A stretch of DNA of 64,000 nt from Candidatus Obscuribacteraceae bacterium. GTDB taxonomy: Bacteria; Cyanobacteriota; Vampirovibrionia; Obscuribacterales; Obscuribacteraceae. The stretch covers positions 544,001-608,000 of the forward strand of contig JBGASG010000001.1 in assembly GCA_044229845.1 (NCBI GenBank), in the 5' to 3' direction. Below the pieces are notes generated by a model. That model worked only from the letters and a program-made list of their open reading frames with translations. It had not been told where the DNA came from and ran no database searches. The first letter of the stretch is position 1, and each line of letters opens with the position of its first letter. This document shows, in pieces, positions 14,927 through 28,992 of the stretch. The position numbers and the translations under genes are program-made.

Positions 14927-16255
14927 TTAGCTTGCGGCTCGCAGCGTTCGCAGGTTACGCAGTGAGCGTTTGAATTCCTGTTGGCGTTTCGCTGCTGCCT
15001 CGCGGCTGTAAACACGATCGATTAGATTGATGAAACCGTGTCGCAGTTGATCCACACTCATATCTGAGGGTTTGAAGTTGACGTCGAAGAGCGTGCACTT
15101 GTCCCAGCGCTCGTCTTCGAGAATGCGACCCTCGCTCTTCAAGCGAGTGTAGAGCGGTGTGCCCGGAAATGCCGTTTGTATCGTCAATTGCACGTCGAAC
15201 AAGCCGAGTTCGCCGACGTAGTCGTATAGGGAGTCGATGGCTTCGATCCTCTGTCCGTCCAGCCCAAGGATGAAGCAGCCGATGACGCGAATTCCATGCG
15301 ACTGAATTTTTTGAATGGATTCCCGAGTTTTGTTGAACATGCGGTATTTATAATCGGCGCGCAGCTCCATATTCTTTAAGGAGTCGGCGACGTTGCTTTC
15401 CAAGCCGATCAAGACTTGCATGCAGCCGCTCTGTTCCATCTTGTACAAGAGCTCCGGATCATCAGCGATAGATAGATCTGTCTCGGCGAACCAGCGCACA
15501 TCACGTTTGACCATCTCCGGTAATAGTTCGTTTTTCCAGAACGCGCGATTGACCAGCGAATTGTCGTCGGCGAATTCGATGAATGGGCGACGCCAGATTG
15601 ATTGAATGCAGTCGAGCTCGGCGAGCACTTTTTCTTTGGGCTTCTGTTTGTAGCGATTGGTAATCAGAATCGATGCCGCGCAGAACTCGCAGCGGTGCGG
15701 GCAACCGCGGCTGGTCTGGATGGTGAGACGGTTGTATTTGCTCGGCTCCAGCAAATGGAACGCGGGCATCGGTGCGTCCTTCATCTCGAAACTGCTGAAT
15801 TGTGATCCATAAAATGGCTTGAGTTGACCTGCTTCGCAGTCTGCGACGATCTGGTTCCAGATTGGTTCGCCTTCGCCGATTGCTACTGCGTCGCAGTACT
15901 GTGCTGCTTCGTGCGGGAGCGAGCTGACATGTGGTCCGCCGATGACCACCGGAATCTTTAGTGCGCGGTAGCGCATGGCTAACTCATAGGCTTCGTGTAT
16001 TTGTGCGCTGTAACTAGATATGGCGACCAGATCGAACTCGCCGGGGACGCTTTCGACCGCGCTCAGGGCCGGCACTTCTATGTAGAAAACCTGATGTCGT
16101 TTGTCTGTGAGCCCAGCCAGGGTCAGGAGAGCCAGGCTCGGCAATGATGCAATGGCTTTGCCTCGGTCAAGAAACCCGGGCAGCGTCAACCCAACGGCTG
16201 CAACTTCCGGATCTATAACGTGTACGCCGCTCATGGCAATCAATCCAATTTTCAT
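14927..16255 (-). CDS. B12-binding-domain radical SAM protein
   Basis: VVIGGPH cobalamin-domain motif, TSRGCPHRCEFC (CxxxCxxC), FADDN, IGLES, PGTPLY. Confidence 0.9.
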   Translation of the reverse strand: MKIGLIAMSGVHVIDPEVAAVGLTLPGFLDRGKAIASLPSLALLTLAGLTDKRHQVFYIEVPALSAVESVPGEFDLVAISSYSAQIHEAYELAMRYRALKIPVVIGGPHVSSLPHEAAQYCDAVAIGEGEPIWNQIVADCEAGQLKPFYGSQFSSFEMKDAPMPAFHLLEPSKYNRLTIQTSRGCPHRCEFCAASILITNRYKQKPKEKVLAELDCIQSIWRRPFIEFADDNSLVNRAFWKNELLPEMVKRDVRWFAETDLSIADDPELLYKMEQSGCMQVLIGLESNVADSLKNMELRADYKYRMFNKTRESIQKIQSHGIRVIGCFILGLDGQRIEAIDSLYDYVGELGLFDVQLTIQTAFPGTPLYTRLKSEGRILEDERWDKCTLFDVNFKPSDMSVDQLRHGFINLIDRVYSREAAAKRQQEFKRSLRNLRTLRAAS

Positions 16256-16641
16256 TTTAGAAGCCCCAGGAAGAGGAAACTACCAGTAGCCGCCACCAAC
16301 GTTACGACCGGCACCACAAACAAGTGACGAAGCGGCCTTTGGAACGCCGCAGCGAAACATGTCAGTGGCATCGTTGCTTGGGCAATCACAAAAAGGAGCG
16401 AAGTAAGCGCAAGCGATTCCGGTGGGATATTTAGCCACTTAGCCGTCGCGACATAAGCAAAGTTGAGGAACGCCAGTCCAAAGCAGGCGATGTGTCCCAA
16501 CCGCAGCAAACGGCGCGTCCACGAGTTATAGCCTCCGAGCCACTCCTCTTCGTTGAACTTCAGTCCGATCGGCACGGCAACAATCAGACCGGCGAAGACG
16601 CCGGCCCAGGCAGCAATCAAATTCATTTCCATACTGCGCAT
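16252..16641 (-). CDS. four-TM membrane protein, translationally coupled to the radical SAM gene
   Basis: Hydrophobic segments, WLGGYNSWTRRLLRLGH motif; 4-nt overlap with the downstream gene. Confidence 0.7.
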   Translation of the reverse strand: MRSMEMNLIAAWAGVFAGLIVAVPIGLKFNEEEWLGGYNSWTRRLLRLGHIACFGLAFLNFAYVATAKWLNIPPESLALTSLLFVIAQATMPLTCFAAAFQRPLRHLFVVPVVTLVAATGSFLFLGLLK

Positions 16642-16732: not shown

Positions 16733-17344
16733 TTAGTTCAAGATGAGCTGGGTAGTTCCTGACCTAGACGTTGGCAGTGCCAGCATCTTTGAGAGCCATT
16801 CCGGCAGCAGCTGGAAACGCGCGGCGCATTCATCCCAGTCTCGCTCAGTCCAGCCGTCGATGGTGTGCTGTAGGAAGTGCACGGGATTGGAGGATCTTCC
16901 TAGATGCCATATGGTGCGCAACTCCGTACCCACTGTTGAATCAGTGAGGACGAGCTTGCGCATGCTGGCACCTACATATTGGATCGGTCCCTGTGAGGTC
17001 CAGATGCGACTGCTGCGTCCACTTACCGCAAAGATTTCGGCGGGCGGTTCCTGCTGGGGGAGTCCGACCTCTCTCGCGAATTGCGCACTCACGCTGGCAA
17101 TAATCTTGTGAAATACACGCGCCTTCGCGAGGGCAATTTCCGTGATGCTGGGTTGGGGAGTATTGGGTCCTCCTTTGATGTATAACCCCCACGCGATGCG
17201 TGTGATTTCTTTGTTAGCGTGTAGTCTCGACAAAGCTGTATCGATCGCACCGCGGTTTTTGGCTAGGTGGAGCACCTGTCGGGTTGCTATCATCGCGCCT
17301 TCCGGGATGCTCTCTATTAGTTCTCTGATTTCTTCGATTGCCAT
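16733..17344 (-). CDS. DUF6088 family protein (AbiEi-like type IV antitoxin/wHTH regulator), orphan
   Basis: IESIPEG...RGAIDTALSRL...ITRIAWGLY N-terminal wHTH pattern; C-terminal LPEWL; AAGGAG RBS before ATG at 17344. Confidence 0.75.
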   Translation of the reverse strand: MAIEEIRELIESIPEGAMIATRQVLHLAKNRGAIDTALSRLHANKEITRIAWGLYIKGGPNTPQPSITEIALAKARVFHKIIASVSAQFAREVGLPQQEPPAEIFAVSGRSSRIWTSQGPIQYVGASMRKLVLTDSTVGTELRTIWHLGRSSNPVHFLQHTIDGWTERDWDECAARFQLLPEWLSKMLALPTSRSGTTQLILN

Positions 17345-17397
17345 AGGGTTTCTCCTTTCGTTTGATCTAAGGATTGTTATATCTAATGGCGCGTCTG

Positions 17398-17995
17398 ATT
17401 TGCAAAACATTCGAATCTAGAGCACCACAGGCGGTGCGAGATGTTAGTGGGGGAATTCTCACATCTTTGTTTGCTCGCGCTGCCTCCCTGGAGCCCTCCG
17501 GCGCCCGCACCGTCTGGGCATTGATAGATTTTGGTACCAGAATCTATCAATATCTGCCACGAGGTTTGCTCAAGACTGAGCGCGATGCTTGCACTCGGCG
17601 TTTCTTGTGAATGCCGTGTTGTGGATTTTGGTTGGTACTGGAATCTATTATTTGCAAACGATTGAAACTGGAGCGCCGTTAAATGTGCGATATTTTGGTG
17701 AGGAAATTTCTCGCGCTTCGTGTTTCGCGTTGCCGCTCTGGCGCCTCCGGCGCCCGTCCGCGCCAACCTAGGCATTGATAGATTTTGGTACCAAAACCTG
17801 TCAACGTCTGCCACCAGAGTTTGCGCCGGGGCGAGAGCAAAACTTGCTCTCGTGCGTTTCGTTTGCATCCCGTATTGGTGGATTTTGGTACTTGAATCTG
17901 ACGTTTTGGCTGGACGCTGTCTGTACAAGCGCCTTTGCGCTGGGGGTGAGCAAATCGCTTTGGCTTCGAATTGTTAGTTTTTAGGACTAAAACCT
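17398..17995. repeat. array of ~30-bp palindromic repeats (consensus TTGATAGATTTTGGTACCARAATCTATCAA) within a diverged ~254-bp tandem duplication
   Basis: Copies at 17521-17550, 17619-17651, 17775-17804, 17875-17904 and 17971-17995 (last one interrupted by the IS); weaker copies near 17433 and 17684. Confidence 0.85.
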
Positions 17996-18120
17996 TTGAC
18001 GTCCTCCCCTCCCTGAAGGAAGGGGATTGCGGCTAAGCAGCCGAAGCTGCCGACACGGTGGGTTCCTGCTTCGCCGAGGCACCCATCGGCACCTCTCCAC
18101 CGCAATCACAATGCCATGGT
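17996..18120 (-). ncRNA. TnpB omega/reRNA scaffold region (right end), overlapping the tnpB 3' remnant
   Basis: Minus strand encodes ...CGGEVPMGASAKQEPTVSAASAA* (TnpB-like tail, stop at 18033-18035), then AATCCCCTTCCTTCAGGGAGGGGAGGACGTCAA. In IS200/IS605 elements this region encodes the reRNA. Confidence 0.6.
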
Positions 18121-18121
18121 G

Positions 18122-18245
18122 CCGCCATCTCCAGAAGCTCTGGGGAGACAGTCTATGGTCTCCTAGCTACTTCGCTGGAAGTTGCGGAGGCGCCCCTATC
18201 AGCATTGTTCGCCAGTATATTGAGCAGCAACGCACCCCACACTGA
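18122..18245 (+). pseudogene. tnpA: IS200/IS605 TnpA (Y1 transposase) C-terminal remnant
   Basis: LWSPSYFAGSCGGAPISIVRQYIEQQ is the canonical TnpA C-terminus with the catalytic Tyr; the HUH-containing N-terminal part is missing. Confidence 0.85.
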
Positions 18246-18425
18246 TCGACAAGGCGTCTGCGCCGCCGGCGCTATCCTCCTCGCCCTGAAGGACGAGGCT
18301 TGCCGCGCATCTTGGTCAAAGACAGCGGGTGATGCGACCGAGAGAGTGTTTTGAAAAATCGAGAGCGTGTTTTGCGCGTTTGTGAAAACGTGAGGCTCAA
18401 ATCGCAAGCGTAGACCGGAATCTGC

Positions 18426-18455
18426 TTGACGCGACATACTAATGTATGGTAGCTT
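18426..18455 (+). promoter_or_regulatory. dnaE2 promoter with candidate SOS (LexA-type) box CATAC-TAAT-GTATG
   Basis: TTGACG (18426-18431), palindrome 18435-18448, TG-G-TAGCTT extended -10 (18447-18455); same motif upstream of imuA. Confidence 0.7.
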
Positions 18456-18500
18456 GAGGACAGCTGATTTAGACTGTCTTTTATAGGTCGTGCGCCGCCA

Positions 18501-21500
18501 ATGGTGGAGTATGCGGAGCTGCATTGCCATTCGGCATTCTCTCTTCTGGATGGAGCTTCCAACCCGGAAGAACTGGTGGCGAGGGCTGTTGAAGTGAAAC
18601 TGAGCGCTCTGGCGCTCACCGATCATGACGATATGGGCGGCATGGTTCGTTTCTCGCATACAGCGAAGGAATATAACTTGCCTGCCATCGTAGGCACCGA
18701 ACTGACTATGGAGGAAGATCATCACCTGGTTTTGCTGGCGCAAAATCTCTCTGGTTATAAAAACATTTGCCATCTCATCACGAAAGGACGTTTCAATAGT
18801 GAGCGTGGTGCGCCGCGTATATCGTTTGAGACGCTGTCCGAGCACGCCGATGGCGTAGTTGCTCTGTCGGGATGCCCGCAAGGTATAGTGCCCGCGTTGT
18901 TCGCGCGCGGAGAGCATGAGCGTGCCACGACGGAAGCCTGCCGCCTGAGGGAATTGTTTGGCGAAAACTTCTTCTTGGAACTTTGGGATCACAATTTGCA
19001 TCAAGAGGGACTTATTTGTCGACAGATGTTGGATCTGTCGGCGCGGTGGGCGATACCGTGGGTGGTGACCAATAACGTTCATTATGCGCCGCCGGAAAAA
19101 CGCATGATCCATGACGTGCTTACATGTCTCAAGCATGAAACTACGCTGCAGACCGCCGGCCGCCGATTGCGGCCAAATGGCACCTGGTACATGAAGTCTC
19201 CCAAGGAGATTGAGTATCAATGGCAGCATGATCTGACCGGCGTTTGCAATACACTGGTTGTGGCGGAGCGCTGTCAGTTTCGTCTGGAAACATTGAAGCC
19301 GGTTCTGCCGGAGTGCCGCATTCCGGCAGGCATGGATCGCAATAGCTACTTGCGCGACCTGGTTTGGCAGGGCGCTCGTGAACGTTATGGCAGCCGGCTG
19401 ACTGAAAAACATGTACAGCAACTTGAACACGAACTTTCCATAATTACCCGGATGCAATTGGAGCCGTATTTCCTCCTTATGCACGAGATTGTCGAATACG
19501 CTCGTTCGCAAGGCATCGCGGTCCAGGGACGCGGTTCCGCTGCCAATTCCGCCGTCTGTTATTGCCTGATGATCACAGCCGTAGATCCAATTGGTATGGA
19601 TTTGCTTTTCGAAAGATTCATTTCGGAAGAGCGCAACGAACCGCCGGATATAGATCTAGATATTGCCCATCAAGAAAGAGAAAAGGTGTTGCAGCATGTC
19701 TATCAAAAGTATGGACGGCAGCACGCCGCGATGGTTTGCGAGCACATTACTTACCGGGGACCTTCCTCTGTGCGTGATGCGGCACGGGTGTTCGGATTCT
19801 CTCAGGAACAGGCGGATCGCTTATCGGCGGAGTGTCAACATGGCGAGGCGCGCACGGCAGCGGAAGGTCTGCTCGCCGGCGGTGCCCGGCGCGCCGGATT
19901 AGATCCATCCGATCGGCGCGTACAGCTACTCATCCAGGTTGTCGCCGGACTGCACCAGTTGCCTCGGCACCGCTCCATACACGTCGGCGGCTTTGTGCTT
20001 TCGGGGGAACCGCTGGGACAGATAGTGCCTATAGAACCCGCCGCCATGGAAGACCGCACCGTTATCCAGTGGGACAAGGATGACCTTGAGCTGGTCGGCT
20101 TGATCAAGATAGATTTGCTGGGGCTGGGGATGCTGACCCTGATCCAGGAAGGCGTTAAGCTGGTTCAGCAACATCGAGGCGTCGATCTGGACCTGGCGCA
20201 ACTGGACATCACCGACCCAGAAATTTACAACATGCTGCAGCGAGCTGATACCATCGGCTTGTTCCAGGTAGAGTCGCGCGCGCAGATGTCCATCCTGCCG
20301 CGCCTTAAACCGACTTGCTTCTATGACATCGTTGTGTCGATTGCGCTGGTGCGCCCGGGTCCTATTCAAGGCAAGATCATTCATCCGTATTTGCGACGGC
20401 GGCGCGGACTGGAGCCTGTCACATACCTGCATCCTTGTGTAGAACCAATTTTGAAGCGCACTCTCGGTGTGCCGTTGTTTCAAGAACAGGGTATGCGTCT
20501 GGCTATTGCGGCTGCCGGATTTACAGCGGCGGAGGCGGATGGCTTGCGGCGTGTGATGACGCACAAACGTTCGCTGGAGAAAATGACTAAGCTCTGCGAA
20601 CAGCTGGCTGAGGGAATGCGACGCAACGGACTCTCCGACATTGCCATCGAAACCATAACTTTCCAGCTGCGCGCTTTCGCCAATTATGGTTTTCCAGAAA
20701 GTCATTCGGCATCGTTTGCTTTATTAGTGTTTGCATCCGCTCACCTGAAACGATACTATGCACCGGAATTTTTCTGCGCCATACTCAATGCGCAGCCGAT
20801 GGGCTTCTACAGCCCGGCTACTTTAATCCGCGATGCAATTCGGCATGCTGTCGAAGTTCGTCCTGTCGACCTGGCAAAAAGTAGTTGGGACTGCACTCTG
20901 GAAAATGACGAAACAGGCGAGCGTCCCCCAGCGCTGCGCTTGGGCATGCGCTATGTGAACGGACTGGGATATCATGCCAAGCTGGCGTTGCAGAGGGTCT
21001 GGACGGAAGGCGGCTCTTTTACATCGGTGGAAGATGTCTGCCTGCGCAGCGGACTTAAGTCTAAAGATCTGGAAAGGCTAGCTATGGCTGGTGCCTTCGC
21101 TTCTTTTCTACCCGGCAGGCGTCGGGCGTTGTGGATGGTGCTTTCCATTTTGCGCAATCGCTTTGATTTGCCTTTGATGAGGAAACTCAAAGAGTTGCAG
21201 ACGGCACCGGAAATGGTGCCGGAAGGTATTGTGCCGATGGACGAACTGGAAGAGATTATTGCCGACTACAGGACGACAAATCTTTCGACTGGACGGCATC
21301 CCATGACTTTCTACCGGCAATGGGCGGATGACCGCGGCATGTATGCGGCGAATCAGCTTACCTGGCTGAGGGACGGTGACCGGGTTTCTACCGCCGGCGG
21401 TGTCATTGTCAGGCAACGACCAGAAACTGCCAAAGGTTTCGTCTTTATCACCCTCGAGGACGAAACTGGAACGTCAAACATTATCATCAATCCACAGGTC

Positions 21501-21665: not shown

Positions 21666-23903
21666 TTAAAGAACAGCATCGGCGGTAAAGTGGATCTCTG
21701 CATTGCTGCCTGCCGGATCGACGTCGAACTTAGTTAGCTTAATCATGTTCCACTTATTGTCTTTGAAGAGTCTAAGCTTGCCGTCGAACTTGAACGGCAT
21801 TTCCAGTTTCTTCAAATGACCGGTAATCACTTTGCGTTCCAGACCTTCCGCAATGCCGCCGGTCACTTTGCTCCAATCCAGATTGACGTCATCTCCGAAG
21901 CCCAGGTCGACGTCTACCTTGTAGGATAACTCACTGTCTGCCAAAGACCTGTTCGGCAACAAGCTGTAATCCATCTCGCCATCACCACTGACGGTGGCAG
22001 TTGCTTTCCAGGGCTTCGTCTCGGTCTCCGCATCACTTTTGATGATTGCCATCAGGCTGCCCTTGTCGATTGTCCCATCGGCCAGCAGGTCAGCCTGGAC
22101 TTTGAACGTAAACTGATTGTCGTTTTTCAAATTCATGCGGTCGATTTCCAGGTCTGACATTTTGACTGTTTTGACAGTAGCGTTGCGATAGCGCCACTTG
22201 CGGTCTGATACTACTTTATTGAGGTTGAAGACCTTTTCCTTCGGCAGGCGTGCCGTGATTGCCTTAGCGAGAGCGCTTTGCGGCAATGTGACGGTGCATG
22301 ACTTGAGGTGCAAGCGTGCTTGACCATTTACCGAAGAAACATCCAATCCTTTCGCCTTGATCTCGGCTTTTTCATCTCCCAGCAATTTGCACTGGTCGAG
22401 CGTGAAGTTGAGTTGGCTGGTTATGTGCACATCAGGATCCAGCACAATCATCAAGGCACCGTCCAGATCGCTCAATTGCAGCACACCGGCCGGACCAGCA
22501 AAGCTTGCTGAACCCAGTTTTACCGTAATCGGCAAAACCATTTGCTGTACTTCCCGGTCCTTATTGAGCGAGAGGTTCATCCCCGCCGGCAAGGATAGTG
22601 TTGAATGTCCTTTGGTTGTGAGCTTGAATGTTTTCTGCCCATTGCTCCAGACGATCTGGTCAAGCTTGGCAGTTCCCTTTGTGATGCTGAAGTCCATTTC
22701 GCCATGTTTGTCGAAGTTTATTTCATCGATGACCGCATCAGATAGGTAGAGGGACAACTGCGTTGTCGGTCGATTGACGTGCACAGTAGCTTTGGATGCC
22801 GTCTCTGGTTCCAGAGTCGAGAATCTCGTTTCGCGAAACTCTTTCGTCACGTCGAGACTAAGTTTGGCGGGAATCGGATCCTGGAAGTGCGCTTCGGTTT
22901 CTTGCCGCTTAGTTCTGATTGCCACATCGGTGTTGGTCAATTGCATCGGTGCAACTACATGCAGTTCACTGTCCTCCTGACCTTCTGTCTTCTTCCAGTC
23001 GATCTGAGTCGGGGTGATTTCGCATTTGCCGGAGTGCGCCGAGGAGCGTTTCTCTTTGCCGAATTTGAAAGTCGAGTCGGTGAGCAAAACCTTGGGTGGT
23101 GTGTTGCCTAACATGAGCTCGACTTTGCCAGCGACGCGATTGGCGTTCAATTGCAAAATCACGGAGCCACCGTTAAACAGAGTATCGACCTTTTCGCCGG
23201 CCCAATTGCAGCCGGGCAGGAAGTTCAGATTGGCTTTGAAACTGCCGACATAGTCTAAGGATCTATCGATGGCGGCATCCTTGAGTTCCACGCTGGAGCC
23301 TTTGCCTACGTGCAGCACCTTGTCATCGAACTTTAGAAATGAATCGGGTTTGAGATCAACTCGTGCCGATTCGATGCTGAGCAAATCGACGATCTGAGTC
23401 AATTCCTGATTCTTGACGCTATCTGCCTGGTTGTTGATGACGTTCAAGAAGTAAGTCCCGAGCAGTCTCAGGAGATCAATGTCTGAAGTGGCCTTGCCGT
23501 CCTTCAGTTCGATAGTTTGCGGCAATGGCACTCCCACAACCAGCACCGAGCTTGAAGTCCAGAGCTGCCCGCTGGCGTGTTCGGTGGAAATGACCGCTGG
23601 ATTGTCTACCGGCAGTGACATAGTGAGCCGGAAATCGGTTATTTTGTTGATGGTGACAGTCCGCCCGCGCACCTGATAGTTGCCCGGACGTAGTCGTCCA
23701 CGCGCCACCACTTCAACTTTCTGAGCGGCTTCCAGCAGGCGGCGCACCGACGGGTCGCTTACCTTAACCGAAAAGACAGCAGGGATCACCGGCTTGCTGG
23801 TGTTCAACTGAGGGAACATACTGCATCCGCTCAGCACGCACAAAAGCGCTGCCGTCACAAAGGCAGTGAAACAGCTGGCGACGTATTGGCGTGCTGCGTT
23901 CAT
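21666..23903 (-). CDS. large beta-rich putative lipoprotein, paralog A (745 aa)
   Basis: Lipobox-like LSGC; end-to-end similarity with 24020..26287. Confidence 0.8.
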   Translation of the reverse strand: MNAARQYVASCFTAFVTAALLCVLSGCSMFPQLNTSKPVIPAVFSVKVSDPSVRRLLEAAQKVEVVARGRLRPGNYQVRGRTVTINKITDFRLTMSLPVDNPAVISTEHASGQLWTSSSVLVVGVPLPQTIELKDGKATSDIDLLRLLGTYFLNVINNQADSVKNQELTQIVDLLSIESARVDLKPDSFLKFDDKVLHVGKGSSVELKDAAIDRSLDYVGSFKANLNFLPGCNWAGEKVDTLFNGGSVILQLNANRVAGKVELMLGNTPPKVLLTDSTFKFGKEKRSSAHSGKCEITPTQIDWKKTEGQEDSELHVVAPMQLTNTDVAIRTKRQETEAHFQDPIPAKLSLDVTKEFRETRFSTLEPETASKATVHVNRPTTQLSLYLSDAVIDEINFDKHGEMDFSITKGTAKLDQIVWSNGQKTFKLTTKGHSTLSLPAGMNLSLNKDREVQQMVLPITVKLGSASFAGPAGVLQLSDLDGALMIVLDPDVHITSQLNFTLDQCKLLGDEKAEIKAKGLDVSSVNGQARLHLKSCTVTLPQSALAKAITARLPKEKVFNLNKVVSDRKWRYRNATVKTVKMSDLEIDRMNLKNDNQFTFKVQADLLADGTIDKGSLMAIIKSDAETETKPWKATATVSGDGEMDYSLLPNRSLADSELSYKVDVDLGFGDDVNLDWSKVTGGIAEGLERKVITGHLKKLEMPFKFDGKLRLFKDNKWNMIKLTKFDVDPAGSNAEIHFTADAVL

Positions 23904-26418: not shown

Positions 26419-28002
26419 TCAATCAAAGAAACCTTCCAGGTGCCAGGCGTCAACTTCGTGGTCGTGTACAAGCAGGATCAAGAAAGACTCACTCTTCGAT
26501 TCGATAAGAGCGACGTAGTATGACTTGCGCACCGGCGTCTCCCACCACAGTCCGGAGAGCCTTTCAGGAGTGGTGATCTCTTTGATTTTGTGCCAGCGGT
26601 GTTTATAGGTGACGGCGGTTGGCTGATTGTTTTGAAACTCGACCAGCACCGGGCACGGTGGTGTGCTGCGGCGCAGCACCAGACCGCAGGCAACTTGCTG
26701 CGAACCGACGCGGCTGCCCACATATTCCAGATTGATTGGCAATACATCGCGAATTACACCGTAAGCGCTATCGGTCACCGGCAGCCAGGCGCCGGCATGC
26801 TCTGGAATGTGTTGATCGTTATGTACCGAACGCACCACTGCATGTTCTCCAAGTCGAGACATAAATTTCTGCAGCAGTAAAGTCAACGATTCTGTAAGTC
26901 CATGGTTGTTGTGCAAAGTCAGCAAACTGCGTTGCTGATGGTGCTCGCCCGTCTCATAGCTGATCTGTTGCCAGGACTCTTTCGAATGGCGAGAAACTGT
27001 CACCACGCAGCCGGTGAACTCTCGTGTCAGCGGCTTTGATTCAAGAGATAGCCTGGCTATTTCAACGAGAAACTTTACCTGATTGCTGGGGCGAATTAGA
27101 TTGAGCGTGCGCTCGTCAATCTTCTCGTTTTCGTTGAAAAAGGACAGCGTCAACTCTTCCGCCCAGAGTCCGTTTTGTTTCAGGTCGAACGTCAGACGAT
27201 CGAGCATGGATTTGAGAATGAACTGAGTCTCGTGCAGGAGTTCGACCGGGGCACCTAATTGAACGATACAGGTATAGTTGCGCTCAGCTGCCGGCAAATG
27301 CGGCTGCACATTGTCGATGCCGCGCGCCAATTCGTGCACGGCAAGCCCCTCACGTCCGAAACGCTCCACAACATGGTCGACTGGCAGTTTTACCAGTTCG
27401 CCCAGCGTATTGATGCCCAGATCGCTGAGCGTTGACTGGAAGTCTTCCGATATGGGCAGGTGTTGCACCGGCAGTGGTGCCAGGAAATCCTGGTCGCCTT
27501 CGGCTGGCACAATGCAAAATTGCTTTTGTCGAGAACGCGTTGCCACCAGTGCCGCAAAGGAACTATCAGCGATGCCGGTGCGCAACTCGGCAAAGCCTGA
27601 ACGGTTGACTACCCGCTGCAGGTTGCGGCAAAAGCGACGTTCGCCGCCCAGGAGTGTCAATCCGCTGGCGTCCAGGAGAAAAATGCCCAGGGCCTGCACC
27701 GTCACTTTGGGAGAAACGGTAATCAGCTCGTGCGAGAGAGCTTTCTGCGCTTTCAGGTAGGCGTTTTGATCGTATTCTTTGAATTGCAGATCGGCGCAGA
27801 TTGCGCGGGCCTGCGAAAGTTTCATGCCTGCCGAAACATTGCGGCGGCTGGCTTCTTTCGAGCACATAACCACATGAGCGCGACTGCCCTTACCCTGGAC
27901 GAGTGCGAATGGCTTACCTTTGAGCTCGGGAGCGAGTTTTTGATGTACGCCTATCTCGAACCTGGGGATGCGTAAACAGGCGATTCGCTGTGGAGCACTC
28001 AA
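26419..28002 (-). CDS. imuB: ImuB, catalytically inactive Y-family polymerase-like protein
   Basis: VSAGMKLSQARAICADL, FLLDASG, FLAPLPVQHL, LGINTLGEL, C-terminal PERLSGLWWE...WHLEGFFD; GGAGGT RBS before TTG. Confidence 0.9.
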   Translation of the reverse strand: MSAPQRIACLRIPRFEIGVHQKLAPELKGKPFALVQGKGSRAHVVMCSKEASRRNVSAGMKLSQARAICADLQFKEYDQNAYLKAQKALSHELITVSPKVTVQALGIFLLDASGLTLLGGERRFCRNLQRVVNRSGFAELRTGIADSSFAALVATRSRQKQFCIVPAEGDQDFLAPLPVQHLPISEDFQSTLSDLGINTLGELVKLPVDHVVERFGREGLAVHELARGIDNVQPHLPAAERNYTCIVQLGAPVELLHETQFILKSMLDRLTFDLKQNGLWAEELTLSFFNENEKIDERTLNLIRPSNQVKFLVEIARLSLESKPLTREFTGCVVTVSRHSKESWQQISYETGEHHQQRSLLTLHNNHGLTESLTLLLQKFMSRLGEHAVVRSVHNDQHIPEHAGAWLPVTDSAYGVIRDVLPINLEYVGSRVGSQQVACGLVLRRSTPPCPVLVEFQNNQPTAVTYKHRWHKIKEITTPERLSGLWWETPVRKSYYVALIESKSESFLILLVHDHEVDAWHLEGFFD

Positions 28003-28825
28003 GCATTACCTCCCTCGATTGTGTCATACCGTCTTTGAATACCGAGAACTTGAAGCTGGGCTGAATCAACGCAACGCCACCCAGTCCCGCTTCACAGCGG
28101 ATGGCGGCGCCGATGTCGAACTGAAAGCGCGCGTAGCAACCCCAACCTTCAGCCTGTTGCTGTTGTTGGGCATTGTTGTCGCCGCTGGACAGATTGGCGT
28201 CGCGCACCACCATTAGTGCTGACCGCGATTTATCCAAAGAGCGTTGCAAACGCGCATAAACCCGGCTGGGAACGTTGCTGTAAGCCAGCCCCTGCTTGCG
28301 GCTGTCAGTGGGATTAGCGCTGCCGAAATCCAGGATGACGACATCGAAAGCGTTGGAGCGGATAAATTGATCGGCGCTCCAGATGGCTTCTTGTACCAGC
28401 AGTGTTTTGCGTGAAATAAGCGGTACGACCTGCTCGTCGCTGGACGTGCTGCCGCTGCCGGCAGTGGCGGCAGACTTATTATCCGGCGGTCGGACGATCC
28501 AAAATTTGCCGGCATTGGTACCGGCATCGACATCTGCCCAATCGGCAGCCAGCAATTTGCCTTCCGCATCGATGTAGGCAACATTGAGTCCCGACTGGCA
28601 CCAGTTGCGAATAGCAGCGCGCAACAAGGTGGACTTGCCTGAGGATAAAGGTCCGATCCATTCGGTGATGCGGCGACGCGCAATGCCACGCGTCAGTGAT
28701 AAATCTATGCATTCCAGTCCGGTGGTCAGGTTGCGAGTACGCTCGCTGTTTGCGGTCAGCCATTTGCCCGGAAAGAGTTGTTCGAACTGTTGCTTTAAAT
28801 TGGACACGCGCGCTTGCATGTTCAT
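27914..28825 (-). CDS. imuA: ImuA-like RecA-superfamily protein
   Basis: TGLECIDLSL.RGI...RITEWIGPLSSGKST (Walker A), AYID, FDVVILD; immediately upstream of imuB; GAAAGGT RBS before ATG at 28825. Confidence 0.8.
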   Translation of the reverse strand: MNMQARVSNLKQQFEQLFPGKWLTANSERTRNLTTGLECIDLSLTRGIARRRITEWIGPLSSGKSTLLRAAIRNWCQSGLNVAYIDAEGKLLAADWADVDAGTNAGKFWIVRPPDNKSAATAGSGSTSSDEQVVPLISRKTLLVQEAIWSADQFIRSNAFDVVILDFGSANPTDSRKQGLAYSNVPSRVYARLQRSLDKSRSALMVVRDANLSSGDNNAQQQQQAEGWGCYARFQFDIGAAIRCEAGLGGVALIQPSFKFSVFKDGMTQSREVMLECSTANRLFTHPQVRDRRTSKTRSRAQR

Positions 28826-28962
28826 TGGATTACCTTTCTGTTGCGAATGAATCCCAGGCATGACGAGTTCGCCCACACACACACTCGAAAACAGAGAGTG
28901 CGCAGAGCCGACCGCCATGGGAGCCCATGACCGTTGGATTTGCAGTGATTTCTTGCTGCTAC

Positions 28963-28992
28963 TATTTAGCCATACGAGTGTATGGGCGTCAA
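28963..28992 (-). promoter_or_regulatory. imuA-imuB promoter with candidate SOS box CATAC-ACTC-GTATG
   Basis: Minus strand TTGACG (28992-28987), CC, CATACACTCGTATG (28984-28971), GC, TAAATA. Confidence 0.7.

Follow-up and report, generated by a model that had tools for sequence, protein, structure and literature searches.

A single-copy, internally deleted IS605-family element with a probably non-functional guide-RNA region in a palindromic repeat array of a Candidatus Obscuribacteraceae bacterium

Insertion sequences (IS) of the IS605/IS606 type combine a Y1 HUH transposase, TnpA, with TnpB, lack inverted terminal repeats, carry subterminal hairpins in direct orientation, and insert 3' of a short specific sequence without duplicating it. 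In ISDra2 of Deinococcus radiodurans, the TnpB guide RNA (ωRNA) overlaps with the tnpB 3' end, and the transposon-associated motif (TAM) is of the TTGAT/TTGAC type; the ωRNA scaffold is reported to span 116 nt, with a pseudoknot of positions -5 to -3 with -103 to -105 next to stem 1, and removal of everything 5' of this core is described as harmless (PMC10097598). Deletion of any of the stem-loops SL1-3 from a trimmed ISDra2 ωRNA is reported to have blocked activity (PMC10821889). Gene-less derivatives resembling palindrome-associated transposable elements (PATEs) in Geobacillus stearothermophilus are amplified, and reportedly often encode ωRNAs dependent on TnpB in trans (Meers et al., PMC10055086), so that elements of this dependent kind have already been described; in TldR repressors, which are nuclease-dead relatives of TnpB, a TAM and a short seed direct binding at promoter-proximal sites. 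Here we describe a 319-bp element within a 64,000-nt stretch of a Candidatus Obscuribacteraceae genome (GenBank assembly GCA_044229845.1, contig JBGASG010000001.1, positions 544,001 to 608,000, forward strand; hereafter "the window", whose numbering is used throughout). We hold with considerable confidence that this mini element is a single-copy deleted derivative of a 1,758-bp IS605-family element, which inserted 3' of a minus-strand TTGAC in the fifth repeat of a palindromic array, and that its guide-RNA region is likely non-functional.

The traits of the IS605/IS606 type listed above recur at this locus and in its parent element, and the divergent order of tnpA and tnpB in the parent is presumably that of the type as well. 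Differences lie in the target, TTGAC, in a right end that stops at GTCAA, the reverse complement of that target, and in the host, apparently a relative of the cyanobacteria that does not photosynthesise. The likeness to ISDra2 extends to a TnpB that is homologous from end to end, an ωRNA overlapping the tnpB 3' end, a first-hairpin loop that pairs with the bases just before the guide, and the type of TAM; by contrast, the scaffold is longer here (~129 nt against 116 nt), the two sequences are not alignable by eye, and activity is a prediction from sequence. The mini element resembles the PATE-like derivatives in keeping both ends without an intact gene and in depending on TnpA in trans, but unlike them it is single-copy and its scaffold has been cut by deletion. 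With TldR repressors it shares the idea of a TAM and short seed that could direct binding, but its guide RNA is truncated and Pfam scans of its own genome revealed no nuclease-dead TnpB homologue.

A search of the genome of origin (G000) with positions 17996-18319 found three places that match query positions 1-105 and 120-324 with 98-100% identity, the two matching segments lying about 1.45 kb apart at each place. These places are full-length copies of 1,763 bp including TTGAC, and thus supply the autonomous copy that the first-pass annotation of this DNA had proposed to seek by matching both ends to the genome. In the minus-strand sense of the window, a full copy reads TTGAC, left-end hairpin, an oppositely oriented tnpA of 138 aa, a tnpB of 403 aa, right-end hairpin and the terminus ...GGACGTCAA, with 37 nt between the end of tnpB and the right end. 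TnpA, which is present in three genomic copies and the remnant described below, matches Pfam Y1_Tnp over profile positions 1-121 (4.3e-43). TnpB matches OrfB_IS605, Cas12f1-like_TNB and HTH_OrfB_IS605, and aligns end to end with ISDra2 TnpB chains 8bf8 and 8h1j (residues 3-383, E 3.5e-51). In one alignment with 9yyg, a designed ISDra2-type relative, its GIDMG, IEDL and ADLNAARN motifs face GVDLG, VEDL and DENAALN, and its CxxC pairs also face those of 9yyg, giving a RuvC acidic triad and a zinc ribbon. The three cognate tnpB frames are open over their full length and 99.5-100% identical to the query copy. Together, the three full copies, the Y1_Tnp domain of TnpA and the acidic motifs of TnpB show the parent to be an IS605-family element that is autonomous and whose nuclease is predicted to be active.

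Measured against these copies, the mini element consists of full-length positions 1-206 (with a 1-nt gap), 19 nt of positions 1478-1496, and positions 1659-1763 (104/105 identical). What it retains is a left end of 201 nt, a 19-nt stretch from inside tnpB and a right end of 105 nt; two internal deletions have removed 1,439 of 1,758 bp, with a 4-nt microhomology, GTGG, at the second deletion junction. On the minus strand, TTGAC (18319-18315) is followed by CAAGATG..., and the terminus ...GGACGTCAA (ending at 17996) by AGGTTTTAGTCC. The interpretation of the first-pass annotation, a 319-bp minus-strand IS200/IS605 element with an internal deletion that keeps both ends and both subterminal hairpins, is borne out by the full copies and by an empty site in a related genome. 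The two hairpins belong to a 32-nt direct repeat (D3; copies 81% alike) and share one orientation, and terminal inverted repeats are absent, as is characteristic of IS200/IS605 elements; the distance between hairpin and cleavage site is 16 nt on the left and shorter, 9 nt, on the right, as in IS608. No intact coding gene remains. The last ~40 codons of tnpA previously proposed are indeed present, as 43 codons, with the correction that a 1-nt deletion after 18132 shifts the frame relative to the full copies; the tnpB remnant is likewise real, but at 21 codons plus a stop (18100-18033) it is shorter than the ~30 codons first given. Two ends without an intact gene recall PATEs and miniature inverted-repeat transposable elements, but amplification into several short copies was not found: the search of the own genome returned this deletion structure at one place only.

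As IS copies are mis-joined in related assemblies, exemplified by a public contig (L031) that links the flanks of two loci, the element might be suspected to be an assembly artefact in which the two ends of a collapsed full-length copy were joined. We give this explanation next to no credence. Four DNA metagenome runs, each from a different study, all contain contigs across both outer junctions, together with a 92-nt contig that spans the mini-specific junction (18071-18162) at close to the depth of the single-copy flanks; moreover, the 19-nt insert, the 1-nt deletion and the point change are particular to the mini element. Because all four runs carry both outer junctions and the deletion junction specific to this copy, the mini element is genuine and widespread in the population, and not an assembly artefact.

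The manner of insertion is fixed by the empty site. When 41 genomes (40 relatives and the own genome) were queried with positions 17300-18620, the intergenic flanks aligned only in G001, a genome of the same genus; the other matches represented the start of dnaE2 or element sequence. In G001 the flanks are contiguous, ...GGACCAAAACCT running directly into GTCAAAGG (in longer form, ...ATTGATAGGTTTTAGGACCAAAACCT into GTCAAAGGC), and constitute an intact palindromic repeat, the precise empty allele that had been suggested for a search of related genomes. It follows that the insert comprises exactly 17996-18314, that the minus-strand TTGAC at 18319-18315 pre-existed, and that the plus-strand TTGAC at 17996-18000 is the element's own GTCAA terminus. 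Insertion 3' of TTGAC without target duplication, leaving a scarless empty site, accords with IS200/IS605 behaviour. Among the distinct left-end junctions (own genome, G001 and a public contig), five of six carry TTGAC and one GTGAC. A preference for TTGAC is also indicated by contigs of the DNA metagenome runs whose loose ends continue beyond 18319. Thus both TTGAC as target and TAM, with the right-end flank as would-be guide, and the simpler reading that the TTGAC end of the repeat made it an insertion target, have withstood scrutiny.

Two candidate readings of this site were rejected. The first took the TTGAC at 17996-18000 as a plus-strand target; no plus-strand TTGAC exists there in the empty site, and the geometry of tnpB and the hairpins fits the minus strand. 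The second took L031 for a full-length copy at the mini site. This 2,349-bp contig contains a full-length copy and the right flank of the mini locus (89 nt, 100%), but on the left it continues into a different locus (G000:C8:643503-644004), so that it is either chimeric across the repeat or represents an insertion that has been rearranged or is polymorphic. The empty-site joint (17995/18315) was not found in the four DNA metagenome runs, as represented by contigs, which drop rare variants. In one of the metagenome runs (X1), a low-depth contig joins 17804 to 18412, skipping 607 nt and bearing 11 other letters, and probably derives from a related organism with a shorter array.

The capacity of the right end to act as a guide RNA can be judged against the conserved scaffold of its family. 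From public genomes, 454 TnpB relatives were confirmed and 80 loci kept; right ends were found by a profile made from the own-genome copies (78 hits), yielding 76 in all including the own genome, of which 48 remained at <93% identity. Forty were aligned, and eight with long insertions were set aside before counting. RNAalifold predicted 24 pairs in the 40 right ends, 15 of them with compensatory changes, describing a 5' hairpin, a long-range helix (CCUGU/GCAGG) around a variable hairpin, a further stem, and the right-end hairpin. We extended this structure by a pseudoknot of 4 bp, in which the 5'-hairpin loop pairs with the NGUC ahead of the terminal AA and the guide. With the pseudoknot included, 97.5% of 1,119 cells are paired and 16/28 pairs change on both sides; none of 500 shuffles reached the observed values, and slid controls were 38-47% paired. 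Support for the pseudoknot itself is moderate: at 98% pairing, it shows a single pair that covaries (AU 32, UG 3, GC 1, UA 1, unpaired 3). The scaffold of the family starts ~129 nt before the right end, and its 5' hairpin is kept in three gene-less modules of the own genome; since these lack a reading frame, conservation of the hairpin is not due to coding.

A covariance model (R1) was built from the 40 elements and validated on the eight held out. Full copies score 110-111 bits, the gene-less modules 98-100 and the held-out elements 78-131, against 47.8 bits for the mini element. It keeps the last 105 nt of the scaffold, but in the R1 alignment unrelated sequence stands in place of the 5' hairpin, so that one strand of the pseudoknot is missing as well, and the long-range helix has lost its 5' strand to deletion. 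Furthermore, the G of GGAAUC, invariant in 40/40 aligned elements, is a C (window 18029), which breaks a C-G pair; in higher-depth metagenome contigs, full copies carry the other base at the corresponding position. The claim that the TnpB guide-RNA region had been retained is therefore not supported where a working form is meant, as the complete conserved scaffold with 5' stem and pseudoknot is absent. The first-pass annotation had itself named removal of essential 5' scaffold as the loss that would count against it, and this is the loss found. In an Rfam scan of the mini element, a full copy and a module, only HgcC was returned, at sub-threshold scores of 22-30 bits against a gathering score of 50, and no curated Rfam family covers this ωRNA. 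The HgcC matches fall on the 3' part of the ωRNA (window 17984-18165, minus strand; L121:1519-1680; L005:1509-1618), and hint that this archaeal RNA family may itself be a family of TnpB guide RNAs.

On the reading that we prefer, an element with divergent tnpA and tnpB inserted after the TTGAC ending palindromic repeat 5, upstream of an AbiEi-like gene, and two internal deletions cut the element to 319 bp, reaching into the ωRNA scaffold. The ωRNA of the family is predicted to need its ~129-nt scaffold, in which the first-hairpin loop is expected to bind the NGUC immediately ahead of the guide, as in ISDra2. Because the mini element lacks the 5' hairpin and a helix strand, TnpB supplied by the intact copies would be expected to form no working complex with its transcript. 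The relic is nevertheless predicted to be movable by TnpA in trans, since both transposase-recognised ends are intact.

The would-be guide begins AGGUUUUAGUCC... and occupies the flank directly 3' of the right end, as is the case for functional ωRNAs. As first described, the 30-mer restored by removing the insert matches the minus strand of sibling repeat 3 (17775-17804) at 25/30 positions, and the guide finds there a TTGAC, a 7-nt seed match and 16/20 identity. This is the best match among 26,435 genomic TTGAC/TTGAT sites; the next three are other faces of array repeats, with TTGAT, and the best outside the array reaches 13/20. As the element inserted into one member of a repeat family, the likeness of the guide to the sibling reflects repeat paralogy and not an independent coincidence. 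For ISDra2, double mismatches within positions 1-12 are reported to abolish cleavage (PMC10097598); the sibling repeat presents two mismatches in this interval, which would be expected to prevent cutting even by a working complex.

The first-pass annotation had gone further, and proposed that TnpB or a TldR supplied in trans might bind, and not cut, the sibling repeat. Such binding would influence the array upstream of the AbiEi-like gene. For this the mini element would have to make a working guide RNA, which we regard as very improbable. The supply of protein is the part of the proposal that stands: Pfam scans (PF01385 and PF07282) found four TnpB-like genes in the genome, and the three cognate ones are intact, with RuvC D-E-D. 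The fourth belongs to a second family, at 59% identity; the acidic triad was assigned from the 9yyg alignment in the cognate proteins and read by eye from the translation in the second family. The TldR part is not supported, as none of the four is a candidate nuclease-dead relative. The perfect TTGAC and 7-nt seed, at the best site in the genome, would suit the proposal, as would the gene-less PATE-like elements that reportedly encode ωRNAs (PMC10055086). Set against this are the missing 5' stem, pseudoknot strand and helix strand, the changed invariant G and the low R1 score; the reported need for the equivalent stems in ISDra2 (PMC10821889); the paralogy of guide and target; and the half-palindrome within the guide, which can fold back on the scaffold 3' end. 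In addition, a consensus scan revealed no σ70-like promoter on either strand in 17350-18550. In four runs that are RNA or were guessed to be so, contigs cover only 18115-18319 and none of 17996-18100; being contigs only, they say nothing on expression, and their loose ends and an extra A indicate that they come from full-length tnpA or other insertion sites.

Several observations weigh against our preferred reading and temper its strength. Published data on binding point in the opposite direction from those on cleavage: chromatin immunoprecipitation sequencing of TldR is reported to indicate a ~6-nt seed and high mismatch tolerance (10.1101/2023.11.30.569447), and off-target binding by TnpB to depend little on a seed (PMC10055086). 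The 7-nt seed and TTGAC would thus in themselves be no obstacle to binding, and any obstacle would lie in the RNA rather than in the target. The need for a 5' stem and pseudoknot in this family is itself inferred from ISDra2 and from conservation. Across the mini junction, the sequence CACCA-UGGCA-UUGUG can fold into a pseudo-hairpin at roughly the position that the lost stem would occupy, offering three of the four possible pseudoknot pairs. Since 11% of random genomic 45-mers and 20% of shuffles show this pattern too, it is likely due to chance, and we consider it extremely improbable that this pseudo-hairpin replaces the lost stem, such that the transcript loads onto TnpB and the complex dwells on the sibling repeat and modulates the operator-like array of the AbiEi-like gene. 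The ancestral base at 18029 is present in one flank-linked contig (run X7) and in L031, so that the change may not be fixed, or these contigs may follow the repeat graph. Finally, at an assembly completeness of 88%, another tnpB-like gene may have escaped assembly, and the promoter scan was a simple consensus scan for one promoter type.

A different way in which the insertion could matter concerns the genes on either side of it. The array of five palindromic repeats lies upstream of the DUF6088/AbiEi-like gene, and in a comparison of G001 with the own genome its repeats are more conserved than the spacers; plausibly the repeats are operator sites. The other flank is occupied by dnaE2, which encodes an error-prone polymerase (NF004225, 1,235 bits). 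By destroying the outermost operator-like repeat and moving the array a further 319 bp away from the SOS-type promoter of dnaE2, the insertion could alter the expression of the AbiEi-like gene or of dnaE2. AbiEi proteins are autoregulators that bind inverted repeats, an array built on one core sits ahead of each of two DUF6088/AbiEi-like genes, the insertion separates the last 5 nt of the repeat from the rest, and it is present in all four DNA runs. We nonetheless consider such an effect very improbable, given that no copy lies further than repeat 5 from the start codon of the AbiEi-like gene (~560 nt), that repeat 5 is already a divergent variant in both species, and that the insertion leaves intact both the LexA-box-like site and the dnaE2-proximal sequence. 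The second array, four copies of ...GAGATTTTGGTATCAGAACCTCAC... (G000:C7:45516-45706), immediately precedes a paralogue of the DUF6088 gene (43% identity across the initial 58 aa), and AbiEi-like genes of this kind may generally be accompanied by palindromic arrays. No AbiEii partner was recognised: a 129-aa open reading frame downstream of the AbiEi-like gene (16252-16641) lacks a match in Pfam, NCBIfam and PADLOC, as does a 745-aa frame after dnaE2 (21666-23903).

Other relatives of the ωRNA occur in the genome. Both known copies of the second tnpB family keep a full scaffold (108-113 bits): that of the own genome (G000:C14:120100-121293) lacks the first ~8 residues and has no tnpA, and that of G001 (contig C8, locus L111) is split into two frames. 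Elsewhere, five right-end or ωRNA-like modules (loci L121, L119, L122, L125 and L123) have no tnpB, three of them with complete scaffolds, of ~250 nt and 98-100 bits under R1. All five possess a promoter-like TTGCAT-17/18-TATACA upstream of the scaffold, overlapping the palindrome (C/T)ATAC-N4-GTAT(G/A), in which the C18 copy ends in C. In its strict form this palindrome occurs at 15 genomic sites, four of them at modules; others lie upstream of lexA, dnaE2 (18435-18448), a gene for a RecA-domain protein (window 27914-28918), ssb, rmuC and the gene for the ribonucleotide reductase small chain. It resembles the cyanobacterial type of LexA box, and is likely the SOS (LexA) box of this lineage, which suggests that the guide-RNA modules may be under LexA control. 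A search of the literature by title and abstract found no report of SOS or LexA control of TnpB guide RNAs. Neither TTGAC nor a left-end hairpin was found at the shared 5' border of the modules; no trans target of their guides improved on 2 mismatches within the first 12 nt combined with at least 6 overall. One module is 100% identical in G001, flanks included. In 30 further genera of the family the modules were not found, nor was their promoter upstream of the second tnpB family.

Table 1. Positions of the mini element, its parts, its target array and related loci (window numbering unless a contig of genome G000 is given)
Feature	Position	Strand	Basis or remark
Internally deleted mini element	17996-18314	-	three full-length matches; G001 empty site; both junctions in 4/4 DNA runs
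TTGAC target/TAM, 5' of left end, pre-existing part of repeat 5	18315-18319	-	GTCAA on plus strand in G001
Left-end subterminal hairpin, CCTCGTCC-TTCA-GGGCGAGG	18279-18298	-	direct repeat of right-end hairpin; 16 nt from cleavage site
tnpA 3' remnant, 43 codons plus stop (18243-18245)	18115-18245	+	Y1_Tnp profile positions 87-121
tnpB-interior fragment (19 nt) between the two deletion junctions	18097-18115	-	blastn 19/19 to full-length 1478-1496
tnpB 3' remnant, 21 codons plus TAG stop	18033-18100	-	residues 381-403
Right end, last 105 nt of ~129-nt ωRNA scaffold	17996-18100	-	covariance model R1
Changed base, G on plus strand (C in RNA sense)	18029		G of GGAAUC in 40/40 aligned elements; breaks C-G pair
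Right-end subterminal hairpin, also ωRNA 3' stem (helix 6)	18006-18025	-	9 nt from cleavage site
Would-be guide flank, AGGTTTTAGTCCTAAAAACT	17976-17995	-	directly 3' of ...GTCAA; fixed by G001 empty site
Array of five palindromic repeats, ~26-30 nt each	17520-17995		upstream of DUF6088 gene; conserved in G001
Repeat 5, left 26 nt, split by insertion (rest 18315-18319)	17970-17995		repeat family D1; intact in G001
Sibling repeat 3, guide-matched site	17775-17804	-	TTGAC TAM and 16/20; mismatches 8, 11, 13, 18
DUF6088/AbiEi-like gene downstream of array	16733-17410	-	Pfam DUF6088 1.5e-07; PADLOC AbiEi 9.3e-22
Full-length copy	C14:111638-113400		identical to C14:172377-174139
Full-length copy	C14:172377-174139		identical to C14:111638-113400
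Full-length copy	C8:29233-30994		7 differences
Complete tnpB-less modules	C7:43190-43447, C18:352755-353007, C19:309452-309698		genome G000
Partly deleted tnpB-less modules	C3:318677-318827, C13:73439-73580		genome G000
Palindrome sites (likely SOS box)	18435-18448, 28971-28984; C15:95398, C1:739387, C8:33429, C3:243090		

As it stands, the mini element matters little beyond being a well-documented example of the decay of an IS605-family element, and of palindromes ending in TTGAC that attract insertions. Were the guide-RNA proposal true, it would provide natural trans-acting guide RNAs, derived from gene-less relics, that regulate host loci. Of more immediate use are a clean pair of empty and filled sites for a TTGAC-targeting element in an uncultured lineage, and a validated covariance model, with pseudoknot, for the guide RNA of this TnpB clade, which separates intact modules from relics.

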